Below the pieces are notes generated by a model that worked only from the letters and a program-made list of their open reading frames with translations, was not told the origin of the DNA and searched no databases. A stretch of DNA of 64,000 nucleotides from IMG/VR virus record IMGVR_UViG_3300010282_000004, positions 64,001 through 128,000 of that record; one strand, given 5' to 3'. Position 1 is the first letter of the stretch. Every line of letters begins with the position of its first letter. The DNA is from a virus. Lineage: Duplodnaviria; Caudoviricetes. Made by a program: the position numbers and the translations under genes. This document shows, piece after piece, positions 7,568 through 55,711 of this stretch.

Positions 7568-8938
7568 TTATACATTAAACTTAACATCTACAACGTCATC
7601 TGTTATCTTGATTTCTTTGATTATCCTAGTAACAATATTTCTTTTTTCATTCATTGTCAGACTATCCCAAATGTTTCGTATAGAGTTTAGGGACTTGATT
7701 GTATCTCTTCTTATACTATTAGACTCAGATCTGTTCTGCTCTTCTAAAATCTTTTCGTCTATGTCTTCAAGTTTTTTCTTTTGCTCAGTTATAGAATCCA
7801 GCAACACTTCACTGTCATCATCTGAGTATAAATCATATAAACGTTTTAGTTTTTTTGTTATTGCTATCCTTTGTTGTTCTAATAGTGATAGAACATCTAT
7901 CTCTTCTATATTATATTGTTTACTATTACTATTATAATTGTCAGCAAATTCAAACATTGCTGATATAATATTATCCTCTATCTCTTTCGCCCAAAGTTTC
8001 TTTTGTGTGCAGTTTGGGTCTTTAACCATATAAGGTTTGGTTATCTGCTGAGAGTAGCAAACAAACTTGCAGACCATTTTATCAGTCTTACTCCATTTTT
8101 GGTATCTCATCCTAGCACCACATTTGCCACAGTAAACAAGACCTGTTAATAAATGGTCAGACCTAACGACAGATGATGTCGATCTACGTTTCATTTCTTT
8201 CATTGCATTATCATACATTTCTTTGGAAATAATAGGCTCATGTTTACCGCAATATTCTACACCATTGTATTCTATAATGCCGTAATATGTTTTCCTCTTT
8301 AATATTTGCCTTATAAATATCTCGTACTTTAAACCAAGTAAGTTTGCTATATCTTGTTGGGACATACCATTCAAATACAGTTGAAAAATCTGTACAACTT
8401 TTTCGGCATCTTCATTTGGCACAAGTATTCCTTGGTTAGAATCATAGTCGTAGCCGAATGGTATCTTGCCACCACCCATCCATAGACCTGACTTAACTCT
8501 TTCTTTCATACCTATCCTAGTTCTCAACTTAATGTTCTCACGTTCTAGTTGTGCAAATGCTGATAAGATTCCTATCATAAGTTTACCGGTTGGACTCGTT
8601 GTATCTATACTTTCATTTAAGGACACAAAGTCTACACCATTCTCATTGAATACATCTTCTATAAGATACAGTGTATCTTTCTGTGATCTGCTTAGTCTGT
8701 CTAACTTAAATACAATAACACATGATATTTTATTATTAGAACAATCTGATATCAATCTTTGTATCTCAGGACGGTTGATCGTACTACCAGAGTATCCACC
8801 ATCTATATAGTATTCATAATCTTTCATACCCTTTGCTATACAATATGCAGTTAGTTGTTCCTTCTGAGCATCGATTGAGTATCCTTCTTCTGCTTGAGCA
8901 TCTGTTGATACTCTAATGTATATGGCCGCTTTCTTCAT
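7568..8938 (-). CDS. Large serine recombinase (phage integrase)
   Basis: YIRVST catalytic Ser, FKLDRLSR, recombinase domain, Zn ribbon CGKCG, coiled coil; start MKKAAIY after AGGAGG. Confidence 0.95.
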   Translation of the reverse strand: MKKAAIYIRVSTDAQAEEGYSIDAQKEQLTAYCIAKGMKDYEYYIDGGYSGSTINRPEIQRLISDCSNNKISCVIVFKLDRLSRSQKDTLYLIEDVFNENGVDFVSLNESIDTTSPTGKLMIGILSAFAQLERENIKLRTRIGMKERVKSGLWMGGGKIPFGYDYDSNQGILVPNEDAEKVVQIFQLYLNGMSQQDIANLLGLKYEIFIRQILKRKTYYGIIEYNGVEYCGKHEPIISKEMYDNAMKEMKRRSTSSVVRSDHLLTGLVYCGKCGARMRYQKWSKTDKMVCKFVCYSQQITKPYMVKDPNCTQKKLWAKEIEDNIISAMFEFADNYNSNSKQYNIEEIDVLSLLEQQRIAITKKLKRLYDLYSDDDSEVLLDSITEQKKKLEDIDEKILEEQNRSESNSIRRDTIKSLNSIRNIWDSLTMNEKRNIVTRIIKEIKITDDVVDVKFNV

Positions 8939-8964
8939 AACCTCTCCTAAAAAAAAGTAAAAAA

Positions 8965-9000
8965 ATGGGAGAACAAGATTATAAAATCTCATTCTCCCAT
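8965..9000 (-). terminator. Intrinsic terminator upstream of the integrase
   Basis: ATGGGAGAA / TTCTCCCAT hairpin with U-run on the minus strand. Confidence 0.6.
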
Positions 9001-9062
9001 ATATTAACATATAGTTATTTGTTTTTCAACCACGACTTATTGGTTTGGTTGTTTGTAGAAAT

Positions 9063-35961: not shown

Positions 35962-36642
35962 TTAGTTGAAAATATCATCAACCAAATCATCGAAGTCAAA
36001 TGTATCTCCACTTTTATTTTCATTGGATTTAACAACATTCTTATCTACGATAGGTCTGATTGATGTCGTATCATAGTTATTTTTGATACGTTCTACTTCT
36101 ATTATTCTCTGTTTTTCAATCCAATTAAGGTAACTATCGTACTTGCCAATCAATACTGCTAAGTCGTAGTTAATTTTTTGAATAGGATCAAGATATTTAC
36201 CTTCATGTTCCATCTTGTTATGCATTTTATCTAATGCAGCCATCTGTCTTTTCCACATATCAAGAAGGTGTTCTGGTGGTATACCTCTAGTCATATCCTT
36301 ATATGTTCCATTATATATATCATCCAACTTATTCCAGACGTAATATGGAATGTTTGTTGGGTTATATTGTTTTACAATAAACCTATATACTAAATCCTTA
36401 TTAATCATAGGCTTAAAGTATTTAACTGTATCAGCACTTAATTCATCTATGCTATTAAGCAACTTAGTGTATTTTTCAACAGTGTCTTTTCGTTTTGATT
36501 GCATCTTCTCTTTACAAAGATTGGCGAAACAATCCTTATGATATGTCTTTTTATCACAATAAATCATTTCGCCAATCGCATGTTTTGTAATTTGAAGAGT
36601 ATCACCACAACAAGCACACTTTCTTGTCAGTGACTCTTTCAT
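35962..36642 (-). CDS. Zn-finger replication-associated protein (possible helicase loader or initiator)
   Basis: CxxC...HxxC; immediately upstream of the helicase. Confidence 0.5.
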   Translation of the reverse strand: MKESLTRKCACCGDTLQITKHAIGEMIYCDKKTYHKDCFANLCKEKMQSKRKDTVEKYTKLLNSIDELSADTVKYFKPMINKDLVYRFIVKQYNPTNIPYYVWNKLDDIYNGTYKDMTRGIPPEHLLDMWKRQMAALDKMHNKMEHEGKYLDPIQKINYDLAVLIGKYDSYLNWIEKQRIIEVERIKNNYDTTSIRPIVDKNVVKSNENKSGDTFDFDDLVDDIFN

Positions 36643-36673
36643 ATTAATTACCTCTGTTTATTTAACCAACTTG

Positions 36674-37837
36674 TTAACCAATAACTTCAATAATCTTCTT
36701 AAGCTTTTCTACATCAGTTTCATTCTTGAATGTAGTAGGAAGTCCAGCTTTAGTAAGGCTATCCTTAACCTTTGTCTTGTCTACCGGGGAAAGAGCAGCA
36801 ATCTTTTCCTTGATAGTAGCCTTGAGTGTTGCGACTTCATTTTCAGGAGAAGGTGTAGGATCAGAAGGTGATACATTAGATACAGGCTCGCCAACACTTC
36901 CCATTACCTCTCTAGTATATAAATCCTGCTCTACTTCTACAGATTTAACCAAGTCGTTCTTTACTACAAATACCTTATTGTTTGCAGTTTTATCAATGAT
37001 CTTCTGCCAATCAAGAAGGGTAGGATCTTCAATAATCGAATTATCCTCATGTACATGAGTTCTATCCTTTTCTACATGAGCGCAAACCTGACCGTCTTCA
37101 TCACGGAACATTCTAATTACAGTCTTTGCATTATATCCCATATCCTTAAATCCATCAGGTATTTTCTTTCCAGTAGATACACTATTAACACTTCCATCAG
37201 AACCTTTTACAGATTCTGTTTTATCTTTTTCTCTTGCAGTTACAATATAATGTACTCCAGATGCAGCCAAATCAAGGATTAAGTTCTGACCTTTGTAGTT
37301 AATCACCTGATAATCACGAAGTTCCATTCCTGAACCCTCAATCTTAACTAACCTTGCATCTCCAATAAGACCTGCAGCATCTGCCTTAACCTTATTTCTC
37401 TTTTTAGAGAATTCAACCAATCCCTGTTTTGCAGTCAAATTAAGAATTGTAGAACCATCAATAACAATAGCATCTGCTCTAAAAGGTTCTCCATCTGCAT
37501 CAACCAATACAGTTTCAGTTTCATTTCCTTCGTCATCAAGTTCATAAATATCTTCGTGATTCTTAACCTTTGAAATATACTGTTCTACTTCAGCTAATGA
37601 CTGAGTATATACAATGTAAATATTTCTAAGGTCAATACCTTTTTCTTCAAGTTCTCCAAGATAATCATCAATAGATCCTGTTTCAGGGTCAAGATACAAT
37701 ACTCTAAACGGTTTACCATCAGGTCTTTTAAAGTATGCGAACTGCATTGCCATTGTTGACTTTCCTGTGAACTGCTCGCCATAAATGAGCATACCAATTT
37801 TACTCTGTGTTGCTGATGCAACTCTTGCTTTTGCCAT
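36674..37837 (-). CDS. AAA_24 / Sak4-like ATPase
   Basis: YGEQFTGKS, YLDPETG, IVIDG, EKDRT; next to SSB. Confidence 0.75.
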   Translation of the reverse strand: MAKARVASATQSKIGMLIYGEQFTGKSTMAMQFAYFKRPDGKPFRVLYLDPETGSIDDYLGELEEKGIDLRNIYIVYTQSLAEVEQYISKVKNHEDIYELDDEGNETETVLVDADGEPFRADAIVIDGSTILNLTAKQGLVEFSKKRNKVKADAAGLIGDARLVKIEGSGMELRDYQVINYKGQNLILDLAASGVHYIVTAREKDKTESVKGSDGSVNSVSTGKKIPDGFKDMGYNAKTVIRMFRDEDGQVCAHVEKDRTHVHEDNSIIEDPTLLDWQKIIDKTANNKVFVVKNDLVKSVEVEQDLYTREVMGSVGEPVSNVSPSDPTPSPENEVATLKATIKEKIAALSPVDKTKVKDSLTKAGLPTTFKNETDVEKLKKIIEVIG

Positions 37838-37972
37838 ATTTATTATCTCCTTTATATTTTATATTTATTACTTTATTAATATATCTCTCACATTTTATGA
37901 GCGAACCATTACAGTTCGCCCATATTGTATGTATCAAAGAGCGAGTCCTAATAATCCCCACTCTAATTTAGA

Positions 37973-39034
37973 TCAATCCCACGCTACGTCATCATCTGAA
38001 TCGTCAAGCTTTGCGTCTCCCCACTCAGAATCTGAGTCAGTACCAAAACTTGCTTCAGCATTCTTAGCCTTGTTAATCTTTGCAATAGCTTCAGTAATGT
38101 TCTTCTCTGTGTATGTGTCCTTGTCGATTGAGTCACCTGCGGCACCTGTGATAACAAAGATTCTTCTAGTAGGTGCAGTAACCTTTGTTGCCATAGGATC
38201 AGCTTCACCCCACTCATCAACCTCTTCAACGACCTCTGTCTGTGTCTCACTTACAATATGGCCATGAACTTTGATTGCATTGTAAGGCTTAAGTGCAGTC
38301 CTGAATGTCTTAGCCAACTTGGGATTCTCAATATAAAACTGAACATCCTCGATACTTCCCCAATTAATAATCTTTGCAAGAACAATGAACTTGCCAGTAG
38401 GCTTATCGTTACTATCTTTTTCCTGCTCGATTCCCATGAATACAATAACCTGATTGAAGTCGTTCTGTGACTTATAGTCACTAGCTTCAAAATCACAGTC
38501 TGCACACAATGAAACCTGATTAGGAACTAACTTGGTTGTCGTTCTCTTTTCACCATTGTTTGTAACGAAACTACTGTAATCCAAATTACCACGAATAAAT
38601 ACAGACTGACCATCTTCCAAGTTTTCTTTGATTTCAACACAAGCATCGTAATCAGTTAAAATCTTCTTGTCGTTTACAACCTTACCAGTCTCGTCTACCT
38701 TCTTCTTTACTCCGATGTTCTTTCCAATCATACGGTAACCTTCACGATTAAACTTGAATCTCTCTGCCCAAGATACTCTCTGAGTATCACCCTTCTCACC
38801 GGGTTTATCAGCTTTCTTAGTGAAGTAAACCAAGTCCTGCTCGATACCCTGCATGTTAACATAGAGAGTCTTTCCAGTATCATAGGAAACACCGAAGTTA
38901 ACAATCTTCATATCCTTTTTGTTTTTTGTTTCGATCTCTTTGTCAAATCCGTCTTTTTCTGTACCAGAAACAATTCCTTTCAACTGAAATGAACCTTTTG
39001 TTTCAGGCAAATCAAATAATCTTTCTCTAGACAT
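37973..39034 (-). CDS. Phage single-stranded DNA-binding protein (SPbeta-like)
   Basis: OB-like beta architecture, acidic C-tail ending DDDVAWD, replication context. Confidence 0.7.
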   Translation of the reverse strand: MSRERLFDLPETKGSFQLKGIVSGTEKDGFDKEIETKNKKDMKIVNFGVSYDTGKTLYVNMQGIEQDLVYFTKKADKPGEKGDTQRVSWAERFKFNREGYRMIGKNIGVKKKVDETGKVVNDKKILTDYDACVEIKENLEDGQSVFIRGNLDYSSFVTNNGEKRTTTKLVPNQVSLCADCDFEASDYKSQNDFNQVIVFMGIEQEKDSNDKPTGKFIVLAKIINWGSIEDVQFYIENPKLAKTFRTALKPYNAIKVHGHIVSETQTEVVEEVDEWGEADPMATKVTAPTRRIFVITGAAGDSIDKDTYTEKNITEAIAKINKAKNAEASFGTDSDSEWGDAKLDDSDDDVAWD

Positions 39035-39080
39035 TTTGTTTTTCTCCTTACTTTAATTAATTTTATTTTGTTAATAGGTT

Positions 39081-39227
39081 ATATACTGTTAAGATTGTTA
39101 ACAGTTTTGGCAGGCACCCAATAGGGTGTCCACAAAATCTAATTTTGGAGGGTTTTGAACATGGATCTATGAGAAGAGCCATCAAATATTAGATGCCTGT
39201 CAAAACTATCAACAACCTCACAGTATA
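39081..39227 (-). ncRNA. Candidate long-hairpin small RNA or 5' leader
   Basis: About 34-bp terminal stem with G.U pairs favouring the minus strand, directly after an AGAGAATA motif. Confidence 0.5.
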
Positions 39228-39263
39228 TTATTCTCTATTTATTTTTAGATTTTCGGCAAATTT

Positions 39264-39566
39264 TTAATTTTTTGCCGATGTGCTATTGTGCCAAAATGCA
39301 TTACAGTAATCGGATACTGTAAAATGATACTCCTCATATTCAGTTCTCCACTCATACAATAAAACTGCATAGATCATTGCAGAGAATAAATTAAGCATGC
39401 TCAGATCAATTCTATCTTTCATTACATTCCCATATGTAAACTGTAATGATATAATCATTGATACTGTAAAGAACGAAATATGCCAGTAATAACATTCAAC
39501 TTTAGTTTTAAACTTCAGTTTGTTTACAATACTTTTAATTACCTTCATTGGCATCCTCTCTTTCAT
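39264..39566 (-). CDS. Membrane hypothetical protein
   Basis: Two hydrophobic segments. Confidence 0.5.
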   Translation of the reverse strand: MKERMPMKVIKSIVNKLKFKTKVECYYWHISFFTVSMIISLQFTYGNVMKDRIDLSMLNLFSAMIYAVLLYEWRTEYEEYHFTVSDYCNAFWHNSTSAKN

Positions 39567-39717
39567 TAATCCGATTCAACTCGTTTCTAATGTCTTCAAG
39601 TTCCTCAGATATTAACTGTAGTTCTGTTAGGTGCTTGAGGTATGTCAGTGAAAGCATTGGAGCTATCACCAATACAATAACCAACAAACCGAAAGCACAA
39701 GCTGCAATCACTTCCAT
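39535..39717 (-). CDS. Small membrane protein
   Basis: N-terminal TM segment; AAGGAG RBS. Confidence 0.55.
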   Translation of the reverse strand: MEVIAACAFGLLVIVLVIAPMLSLTYLKHLTELQLISEELEDIRNELNRINEREDANEGN

Positions 39718-39757
39718 TTTGCTATTCTCCTTTTTAATTGACGTGCATTAATTATTT

Positions 39758-41793
39758 TTAAATTCCTTCATTCACACTTCTTTCCAAACATTTCTTGAAT
39801 GCATCATATGCAATCTCAATACCTCTAAGTTCATCATTGTTATTAATCCCGGTGCTACTGAACCTCCCACGACTAAAGTCGTAGGGTTCTCGTTTCACAT
39901 ATTTCGTAACCTACTTTCTCCACGAGCAGATGCGATAGTTCCTACCGCCATAAATATGTTAATTAAACAATTTTTAAACCTTCATTTAGTATATTCGTTG
40001 CAGCATTAACATCTCTGTCATGATGAGTACCACAATTAGGACATATCCATTCACGAACACCTAAATCTTTTGTTTCCTTATTTATATATCCACAACAACT
40101 ACAAGTTTGAGAACTTGCATACCATTTGTTTATCTTAACTACTTTCTTTCCGTACCAATCTGCCTTGTACTGAAGTTGTCTTGTAAACTCATACCATGAT
40201 ACATCTGAGATTGACTTAGCGAGTTTATGATTCTTGACCATATTACTTACTTGTAAATCTTCAAGGCAGATAATATCATTCTCCTTAATTAAGTTTGTTG
40301 ACAACTTCTGTAAGTAGTCTTTTCTTTGGTTCGCAATATGTTCATGTATCATAGCCACTTTAATTCTTGCTTTGTTATAACGATTACTGCCTATTGTTTT
40401 TCTAGACAATTCTCTTTGTAACTTAACAAGTTTGTTAAATGACTTCTGTAAATACTTAGGATTTTCATATTTCGTACCATCAGATGATATGGCAAAATCT
40501 TTTATTCCTAAATCCAATCCAACACTTTTACCAATTTTAGGTAATTGTTCAATCTCAACATCTGTACAACAGATAGAACAATAATACTTGCCAGATGGTT
40601 CTTGAGATATAGTTGCATTCACGATTCTTCCTTGAGGAATATGTTTATCTCTTGTTTTAACATATCCAAGTTTAGGTAATTTAATTGCTTTACCTAAAAA
40701 TTGTATGTTATTATTTATATAAGAGGTTCTATAAGAGTATCTATGAGTTTTCTTTGACTTAAACTTTGGATATCCAAATCCACTCTTAAAGAAATTTTTA
40801 TATGCCTGTTCCAAGTCTTTTAAAGTGTTTTGTAATGCACATTTATCAGAAATCTGAAGCCATTCATGTTCTTTCTTTAATGAAGTGAGATCCTTACTAC
40901 ATTGGTTATATCCAAAATTTTCTTTTGTCTCTTCATAGATTTCTATTCTTTTAGCCAAATAGTAGTTATACACAAATCTGCAATTACCAAATGTTTGTGC
41001 TAAAAGTGCTTTTTGTTTTTTGTTAGGATATATACGATATTTATATGCTTTTTCCATATCAATCCAACTTTCTACAAAAATAACAGACTGTTTGTTACAA
41101 TATGTTATTCCACGTTTTTTCAAAAACTTTTTCAAAAAAAAACGAAAAAAGTTGAATTTAATTAACATATTTATGGTGGCTGATACTATTGCATCAACCT
41201 ACAACTTTAACCATTTTAGAGGTTGTCGTTCTTTTACGATTCGCTATTTCGTAAACAGTTCTCTAAGGAACACCCCTTACTTTTCAGTAAGGCACAGACT
41301 ATATCTTATCCATGTGTAGTAAAAACTACATTTAGGCGAAACCACTTCGGCATGCTTATGCCTACTCCCCTCAGGAGGGATAGTCGTTGAACGTTCTCCT
41401 ATTCGGAGCTTCGCTGCTGATTACCAATTTTTGTAGAAAGCACTTAGGATTTAACCATATGCCATATAATTACTTTTTTCTGCTTTCGCAACATTCACAC
41501 TTAGGCTTATTTCATCCTTATGTTGTAGTGTAATTATCTTTAAGGTATTCCAGCAATTCAGTTTCTTTATTGGACGATTTCTCGCCACTATGCACAGATT
41601 TCTCTATGCACTAACTATTGTTTTGTCTAACTCATGACTAAAGTCACGAGTGTGCGACAAAATTTCTAATCAAATCAATTTCCTTTGTTACATCTGACAG
41701 AAGTTTGATACAATACTTCTGATTTGATAGCTTACAATACTTTTCAAGTAATGCCTTGAATTCATCAACATCTACTTCATTTTTGTTCAACAT
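39758..41793 (-). CDS. 74-aa hypothetical gene interrupted by the IStron (exons 41669-41793 and 39758-39857)
   Basis: Join gives ...[38 protein letters not shown] in frame; AAGGGAG RBS. Confidence 0.75.
39858..41668 (-). mobile_element. IStron: group I intron fused to a non-autonomous IS200/IS605 element (tnpB only)
   Basis: Inserted after TTGAT and ends TTCAG; subterminal hairpins CTCGTGACTTTAGTCATGAG and CCTACGACTTTAGTCGTGGG; group I core AATTGCTGGAA / AATCAGCAG / GTTCAACGACTA / AAGATATAGTC at 41285-41565. Confidence 0.88.
39963..41057 (-). CDS. tnpB: TnpB RNA-guided endonuclease
   Basis: KAYKYRIYP start, RuvC GLDLG / LEDL / DRDVNAA, Zn finger. Confidence 0.95.
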
Positions 41794-41806
41794 ATTATTC
41801 TCCCTT

Positions 41807-42133
41807 CTAAATGTAAGCCAACCATTTATCCTTTTGATCAATCTTGATTCCAAATTTTCTTCTTACTCTTTTACGTTTTCTTGTATTCTTTGGTTCATAT
41901 TCGTAATAATTGCCCTTGTCCACACTCCATTTGAGAACCTTATGTCCCCTTTTAATATCTGGTATGAAACCATCAAAGACATCACTATAACATTGTTCAA
42001 CTGTATACCCACATCTATTACAATATCCATGTCTTTCTACTATTCCATAACATTCTTCAGCATAGTGTTTGTACCTGTATTTATCTGAATTACAAATTGG
42101 ACATCTATTTGTCTTTGCCAACATCTTCGTCAT
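41807..42133 (-). CDS. Zn-finger hypothetical protein
   Basis: CPIC...CNRC; RBS. Confidence 0.55.
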   Translation of the reverse strand: MTKMLAKTNRCPICNSDKYRYKHYAEECYGIVERHGYCNRCGYTVEQCYSDVFDGFIPDIKRGHKVLKWSVDKGNYYEYEPKNTRKRKRVRRKFGIKIDQKDKWLAYI

Positions 42134-42354
42134 CCTCACTATCTCCACCTGCCAACAAAGCACCAAGAAATACTCCACATCCAAATGCACATAAACACTT
42201 CAAAGCTACTTCATAAACTGCAAGTCCCATGTTTTACAACTCTCCTTTCTTTTTAATAGAAAACTTTCTAAGATATTATTCTCTAAAAATAAAAAAAACA
42301 GATCACAATTTTTAAATTGTAACCTGTTTTTGTTTACAAATTAAATTATTTATT

Positions 42355-42543
42355 TTACCTATAACAATAAGCCTTATTTCCACATGTTGGGCAAGTACAT
42401 TCTGCCACAATTCCATCGTGCATATAGGCCATCTGATCTGCTGCTTTATACTCTCCGTATTCTGCAATGAAAACACAGCCACACTTATTACATTCGAATT
42501 TTCTTTCAATTAATTTAGTTTCACCCGGTTTAATAATCTTCAT
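42355..42543 (-). CDS. Small Zn-ribbon phage protein
   Basis: MKIIKPG...FECNKCGCVF...CPTCG. Confidence 0.65.
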   Translation of the reverse strand: MKIIKPGETKLIERKFECNKCGCVFIAEYGEYKAADQMAYMHDGIVAECTCPTCGNKAYCYR

Positions 42544-42547
42544 AACC

Positions 42548-42754
42548 TTACGTCCTTCCTGTTATAAACACAACAAAACTGTAACACGACAACACAATAA
42601 TATGACTGATCGCACAAACCTTAGAATACGTTTTAAGTTCAATCCAAATGTGTGTAAAGAAATAACTCTCTGATGTATTAATTAAATCTTTAATAGATGC
42701 AATCAGCCATATCATATAAATAATTCCAACTACAATTATAAGTATGTATCTCAT
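42548..42754 (-). CDS. Small membrane protein
   Basis: Two TM segments. Confidence 0.5.
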   Translation of the reverse strand: MRYILIIVVGIIYMIWLIASIKDLINTSESYFFTHIWIELKTYSKVCAISHIIVLSCYSFVVFITGRT

Positions 42755-43060
42755 TTAATTATCCTCATTATCACTCTCATCATCTTCATTACAAAAAATA
42801 TTATTAGAATAAGGCTTAACATCTGCCCAGGCAGAAACACCTGTCATCTCCATGTTATAAAATGGAGTTTCAATATACCATCCCGGTCTTTTTTTAAATT
42901 TAAAATTATATTCATCGACTTCATATAGATTTTTTGAAAAATAATATAGTTCAATAGATGTATCTTTATCACATCCAACTGTTACAAGATATCTGCCATC
43001 CTTATCTGGAAGGCTTTCCGAAACAAGATGCCAATTAATTTCATTCTTCATCATCTTCAT
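42755..43060 (-). CDS. DUF551-like phage protein
   Basis: WHLVSESLP...YLVT...VSAW. Confidence 0.65.
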   Translation of the reverse strand: MKMMKNEINWHLVSESLPDKDGRYLVTVGCDKDTSIELYYFSKNLYEVDEYNFKFKKRPGWYIETPFYNMEMTGVSAWADVKPYSNNIFCNEDDESDNEDN

Positions 43061-43435
43061 CTATCTCCTCATCTTCATTATCGCAATCATACTCATCCCT
43101 ATCATCAGGATCGTAATCATCATGGTCATCCATATAGGGTCTTTCAGTTAAATTAAACCAATTAATTAACTCCCATCTGTCAATAAGTCCGTGATTGTAT
43201 TCAGCATAAGCACTCATTCTTTAACCTCACTTTCCTGTGATTTAATTTCTGTCTTATATGGGCATTCTTTCTCGTCACAACACCATTCCCACCATATATC
43301 CTCTATATATGAATTTTCACACGATAAACATGGTTCATCTATTAAACCTTCCTCATCCAAAAACATACGGGCCATTATTCCTCATCTCCTCTATATTCCC
43401 AAAATATACACTCACTTCCATCTTCGTAATTCAAC

Positions 43436-44722
43436 TTGAACCTCTCATGACTAAAGCCACGAGATTCTTGGGAACAGTAGACCAACGTCCACTTATTAAC
43501 CAAGCTAACCCGGCAGTTCCTGCCGTTATATTTTTAACTCTAAGTTACATTCAATATTCTTAATCCTTCGTTTAGAATATTTATTGCTGCATTTACATCT
43601 CTATCATGATGTGTATTGCAACAAGGGCAAACCCATTCCCTTACAGAAAGATCTTTTGTATCCTTGTTTACATATCCACATACATTACATGTCTGAGAAC
43701 TTGCAAAGAACTTATCTACTTTTACAACCTGTTTGCCATACCAATTTGCTTTATATTCAAGTTGCCTTACAAATTCTGACCATGATACATCTGAAATAGA
43801 TTGTGCGAGTTTATGATTTTGAATCATATTTTTTATTTGTAAATCTTCAATGCAGACAACATCATTGTATTTTATAATGTTTGTGGACAATTTATGTAAA
43901 AAGTCCTTTCTTTGATTTGCTATATGTTCTTGTAATCTTGCCACATTTATTCTTGCTTTATTACGGTTTGAACCACCTTTTGTTTTTCGAGATAATTCTC
44001 TCTGTAATTTAACAAGTTTTTTAAGTGATTGCTTTAAGTAATGAGGATTAGGTATTGACTTCCCATCACTTGTAATACAAAATTCCTTTATTCCTAAATC
44101 AATACCTATTTCACTATTTGTTTTAGGCAATGGCTTATTGTCTACATCAGTACAACATAATGAAACGTAATACTTGCCATTCGGTTCTTGAGATATTGTT
44201 GCACTAAGTATTCTTCCCTGTTGGATCAACTTGTTTTTTGTTTTTACCATCCCTAATTTAGGTAATTTAATATACTTATAACAATATTCTATGTTGTTAT
44301 TATTACATTTACTTTTATAAGAAAACTTGTGAGTTTTCTTGGTTTTAAACTTAGGGTAACCGGTATGCTCTTTAAAGAATTTTTGATAAGCATTATCTAA
44401 ATCTTTAAGTGATGATTGCAATGCAGTAGCATCAACTTCTTTAAGCCATTCAAGTTCTTTTTTAAGTTGTGTTAAATCACTTGAACATTGATTGTATGTA
44501 TAAGATTCTTTATTACTTTTATATCTTTCAATACGTTCTGCAAGATATTTATTGTATACAAATCTACAACAACCAAACGTTTTGGCTATTAAAACCTTTT
44601 GATTTTTATTTGGATATATTCTATATTTATATGCTTTCTCCACATTGCCACCTCACTTTCTTTTAATATTTATTGTGCCAATTCATTCCATGACTGAAGT
44701 CACGGGTGTTCTTGGTCTATTT
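43436..44722 (-). mobile_element. Non-autonomous IS200/IS605-family element (tnpB only)
   Basis: Hairpins CCCGTGACTTCAGTCATGG and CTCGTGGCTTTAGTCATGAG; right end TTCAA; left end after TTTAT (exact junction uncertain by a few nt). Confidence 0.8.
43540..44643 (-). CDS. tnpB: TnpB RNA-guided endonuclease
   Basis: RuvC GIDLG / IEDL / DRDVNAA intact; Zn finger. Confidence 0.95.
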
Positions 44723-44738
44723 ATAAACCTTCATAATA

Positions 44739-47700
44739 TTATTCTCCAATCTTTTCTTCATGTTCTTTATATAACCAATCAATCAACATATCATAACAAC
44801 TCTTACCAATATTTTCTGTGGTAAAACACTGCTGATGGTACGACTCAATTGGGCAACCACTACAATCCATTGAACTGTGTAACTTTGCCAACTTCTCAGG
44901 TGTCATAATTGACATAACATATTCGTAGTTAGTCATTCGATTCATCCTCTTTCCCAATAATCTGGTCTTCCCAAACTTCTTCTTGATTATCATAACCGAC
45001 CTTTACTCTGTATCTAATACCTTTGCGAGTAATTGTTATCATAGAGATAGTACCGGTTGCAACACCGTAGTAGCAATTACACAACACTGTATCATCTAAA
45101 TTATATTTAGTTGTCATTACTATTCCTCCTGAAATCTTTTATTTATTTCTATTTCTTTCTCTTCCAGAATCTCTTTGATAAATTCTATTTCAGTTTCTGA
45201 AAGTTTTACTAATGCAATCCTATCTTCAGATCCGTTTATAGCATCTTCTAAGGCAATGATCAGGTTGCTTAATGCATCCTTGTATGCTTGTGAGATATCA
45301 TCATAACAAGGCCTTGTATCTAGTAAACTAAAATCATTCATGCCTATACCTCACTTTCCTGTGGCTCTATATCTTCAATTTCCACCGCAGTTCTTACAGC
45401 CATAAGCAAACATTCTAGCATTCGTTTGCCTTCGTCTGACAGATACTTTTCGATACACTCAGCACACATTTCGTATCCGTCAAGATAAGCTTTCTGTTCG
45501 CCTTTTGTTCGTAATGTCATTCCTTATCCTCACTTTCTGACTTACTGTGACAAAATTCATACGCAGGGCATTCTTCTACGCACTCTTCATATTCCATACA
45601 CACTTCATTAAGAGTGGGTCTATTATCTTCCAAATACGCTTCCATTTATTCCTCACTTTCTTCCTTTGGTTGCCACTTGTCATTCCAAGAACAACATCCA
45701 CCACATTCATCATCCATTGTTGTTGTGTCATAGCCATTTTCATAATTCCTTCCAAACTTGCAAGTGTTACATTCATGTGGTTCTACACCTTTTTCCTCAT
45801 CAGATTCAATAAGTGGCTCTCCGTTAGCAATGATACTTTCAAACCTTGACAAATCCCTAGGAAAATTTTCTTTTCTTTTTAATGCAATCTTGTATTCTCT
45901 TTCATCAATATCAATCACTAATTTCATTCTTATCCTCACTTTCTGCCTTGTACTACTTATTAAACACTTGCTTTAATGAAAAATTCATTGTTCCATATTT
46001 ACTTTTTTTCAAATATTGATATCCATATTCAACTAAAGCACCAATCAATGTGGAACAATAATAATGAAAAGGCTGACCTTGGCAACAAACAATTACATCG
46101 AACTTTGGATTTTTACATTTTCTTTTTGTCATCCCTATTCCTCACTTTCCTGTGGATCAACCATCATCGCATTGCAATTCGGACAATAATTAATAAATTG
46201 GCTTGAATGTGGGTCATATTCTTTGCTACATTCAGAACATTTACAATGTGGTATGTTTTCCGTGTACCACTCATGTTCTTTTTGTTCATACCACCTTACC
46301 CAATGCCCTATCTTCTGCGGATTGACGGAAGGTAAAACCTCATAACATTCTTTCAGCAACTCTTTATAGTTTTCGACTGTTCTATCCTCGTCAAGAACAT
46401 TATCCATATCATCCAATGTTTCAATCACCGCTTTTCTGCTCACTGCATCTTCGCAAGGCTCTTGCTCTAATGCTTTGATTGCCATTTCCATAGATTCTAA
46501 ATCTTTTTCATCATCTTCGCTTATGTGCTTGGAATCAAAATAAAATGCTCTCATTTCTTGCAATGTATTTGTTAACCTATTTAATGCCTCTTCCCTTGTA
46601 ATCATTCCACATCACCCCCATACAACAACAAATTGTCTATTGCGATCAGAAATTCGTCTAATGTCATATAATCGTGACCAATTATTTTCTTCTTTAATGC
46701 CCTAAGATATGGCTTAATAACTTTCTTTTCTGTAATAGTTGTCATTGAATCTATTGCCTGCTTTATATCCTTGCCAGAGTATATACATTCATCCGTTTCT
46801 AAATTGAAAACATATTGTATATGTGACTTGTCTATGAATTCTTTGTTTGTCATTCCCTATCTCCTTCCATTCAATTATTTTCCAAAATATACCCAAAATT
46901 TATAATTAGAAATTTTAAGAACCTCAGATTTAAGTTCTTTTATTTTATTGTTGTTGCTGACATATATCTCGATTTCATTTGATACTAGAATATCAGCACC
47001 AAGTTCAGGATATAAAGACACCAATGTGAATGCATCATCATCTGGACTTACTTTGACGACTATATCCTTCTCATATTCCATATATTTATTTACTGTGTTT
47101 GACACCCTTTCTTCAATCAATGCGTTCTCTTCTTCATACATGGCGATCTGTGCCGGAATAACATATTTGCATTGGTGGATCATATATGAGTTATATCCAA
47201 ATATAAATAGTGCAATCATTACCATTGCTAGTGGTAGTAATGTAATATCACCATCCCAACCTGCCGCTGCAAAGAATATAAACAAAGCAACACTTATAAC
47301 AAATATCAATATAGCCATAATTATTTTTCTCCTTTCAATGCCTTATCCATTTTATGTTCTTCAATAATTTCTTTCAAAAATTTACAACAGTCTTCACAAA
47401 CATTTCCATGAATATCATTTCCAAATCCATTTTTTGATTCAATAATATTTCCACATATACAACATGGAATTCCTATTTTAAAGTTTGCTATTTCATCTAT
47501 ATTCATTCTTAAAGTACCCATATCTAGTCCCCACTTTCTGCCTTGTATTTGTCGATAATATCGATAATAACTTCAAGTATAATATCCTTGCTTACCATAT
47601 TGAACAATAGATTGTTTTTTGTTTCCTTTATCTCGGATCTTATCTCGTCAAGTATACCTGTTTTTGTCTTCTGAGGATTGACTGATGGTAAACAATCCTC

Positions 47701-54700: not shown

Positions 54701-55711
54701 TTAATCCTTGATTCCATGCATCTGTTTTGCAAGCATTTCAGTTGCATTCATTCTATCATTGTTATCTACCATCGCATACTTTCTTGTTGTTGCCGGAGAT
54801 TTGTGTCCAAGTGTTTCTGCTACAATATAAATATCTCTTGTCGCCCGGTACATATTTGTAGCACATGTACTTCTAAGTTTGTGAGGTGTAATGTGTTTAT
54901 TGATTCCATTTGTATATTTATTTACAATATATTGAATGGATCTTACATCCATTTTTTCTTTTCTATTTGATATAAATAAATATCCACAATCATTACTACC
55001 TTTTAAAAGTTCCTTTCTATGCCTAATCCATGTATGTAATAGTTCTATTGTCTCATCATCAAGATATAATTTCTTTTCTCTTGCCTTATCAATTACATAT
55101 ATACATTTCTTATCGAAGTCTATATCTTCCATTGATATTTGACTTAATGCAGTAACACGAACGCCTGTCATAATTGGAATTTGGAATAACAATAAATCTC
55201 TATACATCCATGGTTTTTGTCTTGCCCTTGCCCTACTGCTCCCTGTTCCAGATAAAATATTATTTTTTACAATACTATATTCCTCTGGCTCAAGAAAAGT
55301 AATTTCATTATCTCCAACATTTGGCCTTTTAATTCTCTTGCCATCAAATGGATTGTCAGTTATAATATTATTATATTTAAGAAATGTTGTAAATGCATTT
55401 ATGTAGCAATATAGATTTGCTTTTGCATCATCACGTAACTCTTTATTGTCATCAAAATATTGTATCTCAGACATAAACTGTTGAATTACTCTTGGACTAA
55501 TTTTGTTTAGTTTTTCATTGTTAACACTATTAATATTTCCATTTGAATACCAATTAAGAAATCTTATTGCACTATCAATATAAATCTTTTTTGTCTTATA
55601 TGTTTTTTCATTTAAGTAATAATAGTAATCCATAAGAAATTCCGGCATGCCACTTATTTTTTCTCTTATTTTTTTCTCTTCCCTAATCTTATCTTCAATA
55701 CGTCCTCTCAT
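54701..55711 (-). CDS. Tyrosine recombinase (XerC/D-like)
   Basis: TGVRV, HKLRST, LGH, TTRKY: catalytic residues intact. Confidence 0.92.
   Translation of the reverse strand: MRGRIEDKIREEKKIREKISGMPEFLMDYYYYLNEKTYKTKKIYIDSAIRFLNWYSNGNINSVNNEKLNKISPRVIQQFMSEIQYFDDNKELRDDAKANLYCYINAFTTFLKYNNIITDNPFDGKRIKRPNVGDNEITFLEPEEYSIVKNNILSGTGSSRARARQKPWMYRDLLLFQIPIMTGVRVTALSQISMEDIDFDKKCIYVIDKAREKKLYLDDETIELLHTWIRHRKELLKGSNDCGYLFISNRKEKMDVRSIQYIVNKYTNGINKHITPHKLRSTCATNMYRATRDIYIVAETLGHKSPATTRKYAMVDNNDRMNATEMLAKQMHGIKD

Follow-up and report, generated by a model that had tools for sequence, protein, structure and literature searches.

A tnpA-less group A IStron in a temperate ruminant-gut phage and the empty alleles of the gene that it interrupts

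In IStrons a single RNA/DNA sequence serves three selfish functions, which are transposition, self-splicing and RNA-guided homing. Elements of group A are inserted after TTGAT and have the terminus TCAG (PMC4227781), while for the CdiIStron TTGAT was identified as TAM and the splice sites were found to coincide with LE and RE (10.1101/2023.11.20.567912). Both sources agree with what the first-pass annotation of the DNA studied here had given as established for CdISt1-type IStrons (insertion after TTGAT, splicing out of RNA, cutting of the empty site by TnpB). For CboIStron splicing and RNA-guided cleavage were experimentally shown. Spread of tnpA-less IStrons by intron homing, including transfer between co-infecting phages, has already been proposed, and according to a 2026 review it awaits experimental validation (PMC13565253). 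The IStron class as such, phage IStrons (CbISt3/4, group B) and the TTGAT TAM of IS605 TnpB are likewise in print, these points being covered together by PMC4227781, PMC8612924 and PMC13565253; a limited literature search found no publication on group A IStrons specifically in phage genomes.

The locus described here shares with CdISt1 and the CdiIStrons of Clostridioides difficile and relatives the insertion after TTGAT, the TCAG end, subterminal hairpins, a group I intron at the 5′ side, an IS part that follows the GAACGA motif past domain 9, an AU-rich inverted-repeat stem around the ORF, a retained tnpB with lost tnpA and, by prediction, splice sites identical to the transposon ends. Compared by published features, it differs from them in its residence in a phage genome instead of a bacterial chromosome, in the lack of any tnpA remnant and in a TnpB whose clade, in the present analysis, is made up of phage records alone. 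Group B elements CbISt3 and CbISt4 of Clostridium botulinum phages c-st and D-1873 (PMC4227781), as well as CboIStron, are likewise phage-borne IStrons with TnpB. The TnpB-omegaRNA system of ISDra2 from Deinococcus radiodurans (PMC8612924) is similar in an end-to-end TnpB match, catalytic residues, TTGAT as target and TAM, and a guide RNA (predicted here) that extends out of the right end into flanking DNA; unlike the element studied, ISDra2 has TnpA, contains no intron and does not require a terminal G. Phage introns of the T4 td/I-TevI type are also self-splicing introns with a nuclease gene that are polymorphic among related phages, and for them, as for the present IStron, spread is expected by homing in co-infection. 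In contrast to I-TevI, however, the nuclease considered here is predicted to be RNA-guided, with its target taken from the flanking exon.

The analysed stretch of 64,000 nucleotides (hereafter the window) corresponds to bases 64001–128000 of a viral IMG/VR record, which is linear, has a length of 147,594 bp and is estimated to be 83% complete. The carrier, about 148 kb in size, is a phage of the ruminant gut. It encodes two integrases, of the serine and tyrosine types, and is therefore temperate. The sequencing runs that share segments with the region come from gut metagenomes (cattle, goat, rumen), and no RNA run was among them. No megablast match to the 12-kb neighbourhood was obtained in the phage collection. 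Genes near the IStron match phage replication families (DNA polymerase phrog_405, RecJ-like exonuclease, DnaB-like helicase, primase, Sak4-like annealing protein and SSB-like protein). Contigs of four public runs (X1–X4) were compared with positions 36500–46500 of the window. In the X3 and X4 relatives segment 37837–37936, located between the genes of the Sak4-like and SSB-like proteins, is represented by approximately 800 other letters, and this points to a further insertion/deletion polymorphism in the replication module. The main features of the locus are collected in Table 1.

Table 1. Positions of the IStron, its parts and neighbouring features in the window.
Feature	Position	Strand	Basis or remark
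Whole IStron, 1811 nt	41668..39858	(-)	Rfam core, tnpB, contigs of runs X3/X4 skipping exactly 1811 nt
TTGAT (target site of IS605 and predicted TAM of TnpB; also provides the 5′ exon strand of P1)	41673-41669	(-)	
Left-end structure: outer stem TTTTGTC/GACAAAA enclosing the subterminal hairpin, in P1 loop	41621..41662	(-)	compensatory changes
LE hairpin CTCGTGAC-TTTAG-TCATGAG	41650-41631	(-)	
Internal guide sequence UAGUUAG, pairs with exon UUGAU + intron UA (P1)	41611..41617	(-)	RNAalifold
Group I ribozyme core (P2-P9)	41615..41275	(-)	Rfam RF00028
Inverted-repeat stem, 5′ arm, loops out tnpB	41155..41181	(-)	duplex -29.6 kcal/mol, z -7.9
Inverted-repeat stem, 3′ arm; covers tnpB stop codon and 5′ arm of guide-RNA stem 1	39943..39969	(-)	
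tnpB, 364 aa, RuvC D/E/D and CxxC..CxxC intact	41057..39963	(-)	
Predicted scaffold of the omegaRNA with three stems, of which the RE hairpin is the last; ends in terminal G (omegaG) at 39858	39950..39858	(-)	
RE hairpin CCTACGAC-TTTA-GTCGTGGG	39885-39866	(-)	
Guide TAGCACCGGGATTAAT of 16 nt (predicted), with which exon 2 starts	39842..39857	(-)	length inferred from ISDra2 TnpB
Exon 1 of 74-aa gene, ATG 41793, 41 codons + 2 nt	41669..41793	(-)	
Exon 2 of 74-aa gene, stop codon included	39758..39857	(-)	
Second element: intron-less tnpB-only IS605 relative, after TTTAT, ending TTCAA	44722..43436	(-)	
Large serine recombinase-type integrase	7568-9010	(-)	
Tyrosine integrase	54701-55711	(-)	

The first-pass annotation had placed at 39858–41668 an element preceded by TTGAT and ending with TTCAG, with IS605 hairpins at both ends, a full group I core and an intact tnpB but no tnpA. 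Every part of this anatomy was recovered, the coordinates exactly. The element begins with TAGAAATTTT and ends with GGAGGTTCAG (terminus TTCAG, final G at 39858); read further inwards its start is TAGAAATTTTGTCGCACACTCGTGACTTTAGTCATGAG and its finish is CCTACGACTTTAGTCGTGGGAGGTTCAG. The pentanucleotide TTGAT is uninformative alone, as its 329 occurrences in the window equal the chance expectation. Both subterminal hairpins, LE and RE, are conserved in relatives with compensatory changes. Since TAG begins the element and exon 2 alike, the deletion alone leaves an uncertainty of up to 3 nt in the boundary. Its register is fixed by the family rule xxGAT/TA...TTCAG/, which holds for six of six IStrons, and by three contigs of run X2 that lose likeness exactly at 39858. 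Interpretation of the TAG repeat as a target duplication or a P10 requirement was rejected, since there is no such repeat in five relatives. A contig of 1955 nt from run X1 spans 41673..39857 with 7 differences in 1817 nt and continues with 139 nt unlike the flank of the window. Together, the X1 and X2 contigs fix the right boundary and show that close copies sit in other contexts.

A six-frame search of the whole 147.6-kb record for the Y1 (HUH) transposase TnpA (PF01797) gave no candidate, while controls were positive. The IStron is non-autonomous: Y1 TnpA, by which an autonomous IS200/IS605 element is recognized, is absent. By all sequence-level features tested the element is a group A IStron of the IS200/IS605 type, similar to CdISt1.

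TnpB contains Pfam domains HTH_OrfB_IS605, OrfB_IS605 and Cas12f1-like_TNB and matches ISDra2 TnpB (8BF8, 8EXA, 8H1J) over residues 2–361 with E 5.8e-109. The RuvC triad, composed of D in GLDLGIK, E in LEDL and D in HDRDVNAA, is retained in its 364-aa ORF, as is the zinc finger with both CxxC pairs. The right ends of 10 elements, which included IStrons and their intron-less relatives, adopt a common three-stem fold with compensatory changes in 18 of 26 pairs, and this is how an omegaRNA scaffold ending in the RE hairpin is predicted to look. The letters of the putative guide TAGCACCGGGATTAAT occur in the phage record only once and are preceded there by GTTCAG, not by TTGAT. The role of TTGAT as TAM is a prediction assumed from the insertion site and from ISDra2.

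The upstream part of the element matches RF00028 over model positions 1–253 of 253 with a score of 71.8 bits (threshold 50; E 1e-17). This score was obtained by scanning 2.3 kb; an Rfam scan of the whole window (1–64000) at the gathering threshold returned nothing and missed the core, since default filters hide the intron in long inputs. The intron is probably a self-splicing one of group IA2 type; the Rfam model applied is generic. For the left ends of the six IStrons, including the present one, RNAalifold predicted a P1 formed by exon UGAU and intron UA with the internal guide UAGUYA and with a U·G pair, to which in the window TTGAT contributes its last U, at the 5′ splice site in all six. 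The loop of this P1 holds the IS605 hairpin, and P2 was also predicted, with compensatory changes. A point against the reading preferred below is P10, which pairs only minimally with exon 2 (2 bp). The motif GAACGA was read near 41230, and the IS part lies downstream of domain 9.

An AU-rich inverted-repeat stem flanking the ORF is a described feature of IStrons (Tourasse et al., PMC4227781). In the element of the window the stem enclosing tnpB comprises 24 bp, and in five of the six IStrons a stem of 24–33 bp was predicted between the post-core region and the region of the tnpB stop codon (z from -8 to -13), its sequence differing from element to element. Wide search spans gave non-significant energies for four relatives, and the stem was resolved in narrower ones; in L005, the element of a Clostridioides phage considered below, it was found with neither. 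The inverted-repeat stem overlaps the 5′ arm of omegaRNA stem 1, in line with publications in which splicing and maturation of the guide RNA are antagonistic (10.1101/2023.11.20.567912; PMC13521648). As it covers both the tnpB stop codon and omegaRNA stem 1, the folds required for splicing and for the guide RNA would compete at a second place, the other one, already in print, being the 3′ terminal stem.

The IStron lies in sense orientation within a 74-aa gene of the early region. Exon 1 ends with ...GAA ATT GAT TTG AT at 41669, the frame resumes at 39857 as T AGC ACC GGG..., and joining of 41669 to 39857 gives an uninterrupted ORF of 74 aa. By chance alone an open frame on joining is expected in about one case of three, which makes it weak evidence by itself. 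In a collection of 5.8 billion proteins, however, three uninterrupted full-length homologues (P0001–P0003) were found with 97%, 89% and 89% identity at 100% coverage, and all of them read ...KEIDLIS(T/A)GINNNDEL... across the predicted joint. Moreover, contigs from X3 (147,895 nt) and X4 (837 nt), two different cattle-gut studies, join 39854 to 41666 and thereby skip exactly 1811 nt; the joint is offset by 3 nt because both the element and exon 2 begin with TAG. For the restored gene the three full-length homologues and the contigs from two studies are decisive at the level of sequence. The first-pass annotation had claimed that removal of the element exactly restores a 74-aa gene and had named in advance a different junction in empty alleles of related phages as an outcome that would speak against it; homologues and contigs alike carry the predicted junction.

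Empty alleles are present in the same habitat as the IStron-bearing phage. At the protein level those of the P0001 type preserve Ile-Ser-Thr-Gly-Ile-Asn over the codons of TAM plus guide. Two of the three empty-allele proteins (P0002 and P0003) have Thr replaced by Ala at guide position 5, and in P0002 there is also a change of Ile to Leu in the codon completing TTGAT, which would remove the TAM. Based on these substitutions one can assume that some relatives are susceptible to cleavage and others resistant, so that TnpB would probably fail to cut some of the empty alleles in nature. The 74-aa protein has no lead in Pfam, PHROG or ESM-Atlas and is absent from five large IMG/VR contigs with related elements. 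An alignment search with it over viral, metagenome and genome contigs gave no related loci, and exact and degenerate DNA patterns over the junction and exon 2 gave no hits in viral or metagenome contigs. Two variants of the host protein, P0005 (59 aa) and P0004 (123 aa), were registered in other metagenomes. One of them, which diverges after residue 32, may represent a further interrupted allele, and in the other there is a fusion with the gene for a 60-aa membrane protein that lies downstream.

Of the full-length relatives in the phage collection, the nearest is an element of Clostridioides phage ES-S-0173-01 that carries no annotation (L005; 71.7% nucleotide identity, 67% for TnpB). Among 52 IMG/VR loci with related TnpBs a homologous upstream intron was found in four (L009–L012), in two of which it is confirmed by Rfam, and these four together with L005 make up the five other IStrons from phage records. 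All six elements start with TA right after (T/C/G)(T/C)GAT and end with AGGTTCAG, and all lie in sense orientation inside ORFs that can be restored: removal of the element gives one long reading frame of 597 aa in L005 and of 356, 439, >1436 and 451 aa in L009–L012, respectively. The terminal base is G in six of six IStrons versus A or C in several intron-less relatives. A second related copy of the group I intron was observed in L010 (4450–4807), about 730 nt downstream of the IStron (nhmmer E 6e-48).

The phage itself carries another tnpB element, 1.8 kb upstream of the IStron in an apparently intergenic position, whose TnpB is 68% identical to that of the IStron; a check for an intron in it was negative. 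In the X3 relative this second element is located at another place, while its site is occupied by 1758 other letters. A quick maximum-likelihood tree was built for 79 TnpBs, taken from the window, L005, L007–L058 and L060–L110. The six TnpBs of IStrons and four of intron-less elements formed in it a clade composed of phage records only (SH-aLRT 97). Elements with and without the intron alternate there as sister pairs, which requires a minimum of four intron gains or losses. Bacterial TnpBs were searched for by exact peptide words in one genome per species, and the clade is thus phage-only among the TnpBs found. The nearest of the bacterial proteins are at most 58% identical to the TnpB of the window, whereas phage-borne ones reach 72%. 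A related intron was absent from all 51 nearest bacterial loci, and no donor element was seen in bacterial genomes.

Taken together, we consider it highly probable that the locus is a non-autonomous group A IStron that would combine splicing with TnpB-guided homing into empty relatives, the functional steps being those that we infer from its anatomy. The intron would splice out of the mRNA with the joint GATTTGAT/TAGCACC and restore the 74-aa protein, so that the insertion should cost the phage little. Some transcripts would instead be processed to an omegaRNA, composed of scaffold 39950–39858 and a guide of about 16 nt from exon 2, and loaded on TnpB. The complex may then cut the empty allele, in which TTGAT is followed by TAGCACCGGGATTAAT, while the occupied allele should be safe, and the phage should not cut itself, because its own guide sequence follows GTTCAG. 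If IStron-bearing and IStron-free relatives meet in one cell, either by co-infection or by superinfection of a prophage carrier, repair of the break could copy the IStron in, and failed repair would destroy the rival genome. Since the phage encodes no TnpA, movement to new sites, which the other flanks in X1 and X2 suggest, depends on a Y1 TnpA supplied in trans, plausibly by the host during the prophage state. That the guide is directed at IStron-free relatives, with homing or competition as the outcome, is plausible since catalytic residues are intact, the guide-RNA scaffold is conserved and empty alleles occur in the same habitat.

The same anatomy may be read otherwise. Host TnpA acting in trans could have brought the IStron during the prophage state as a stranded passenger, which is tolerated by splicing only, its TnpB playing no role in spread from phage to phage, so that the polymorphism would reflect nothing else than insertion and vertical descent. 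We regard this as rather unlikely, though deserving serious weight. The phage record contains no tnpA, two integrases of a temperate phage give access to host transposases, and the near-identical copy with another 3′ flank in X1, as well as several flanks in X2, form a pattern that needs transposition, not homing. A mere passenger, however, is hard to reconcile with tnpB and the omegaRNA scaffold being intact and conserved in all six phage IStrons, and the nearest bacterial TnpBs found (≤58%) are more distant than phage-borne ones (up to 72%), with no donor element seen in bacterial genomes. Far more dubious is an inactive or decayed ribozyme, in which case the 74-aa gene would be dispensable and simply disrupted by a plain IS605 insertion, its open frame on joining being a coincidence. 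The one-in-three prior for such a frame and the absence of a known function for the product (no Pfam, PHROG or ESM-Atlas lead) allow for this scenario; against it there are the full-length group I core above the Rfam threshold, the conserved P1 with its U·G pair, the sense orientation of all six family members in ORFs restored by their removal, and G at the end of all six versus A or C in several intron-less relatives, which makes it very improbable.

A further reading, with the same anatomy as homing, is the use of TnpB-omegaRNA mainly as a weapon of exclusion, when IStron-free relatives that co-infect or superinfect the cell are destroyed to the benefit of the carrier, with little conversion. 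Where genomes have diverged too far for gene conversion, homing nucleases still bring their carrier a competitive advantage (PMC13565253), and the X3 and X4 relatives differ by 3–6% in the flanks. Yet flanks with 94–97% identity are ample for recombinational repair, and the target is a small, accessory-looking ORF, so we find this explanation improbable. Splicing combined with TnpB-guided homing remains, therefore, our preferred reading.

The finding leaves the picture of what an IStron is unchanged; its value lies in the natural filled and empty alleles and in a hint of a phage-resident lineage with modular gain and loss of the intron. Filled and empty alleles in closely related natural phages make a convenient test case for IStron homing, in which co-infection crosses would give a direct readout of super-Mendelian inheritance, and the small, apparently dispensable host gene is easy to manipulate. 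Going further, one may tentatively suppose, with somewhat more doubt than confidence, that there is a phage-resident lineage of IS605-type TnpB which has repeatedly gained and lost the intron, and that RNA-guided homing alone carries its tnpA-less IStrons from one temperate gut phage to related ones, the exon-derived guide retargeting itself at each new site. If this were true, the present locus, with natural filled and empty alleles in one habitat, would provide the first system for measuring RNA-guided intron homing between viruses. The interleaving of IStrons and intron-less elements in one phage-only clade of TnpBs also bears on the origin of IStrons.
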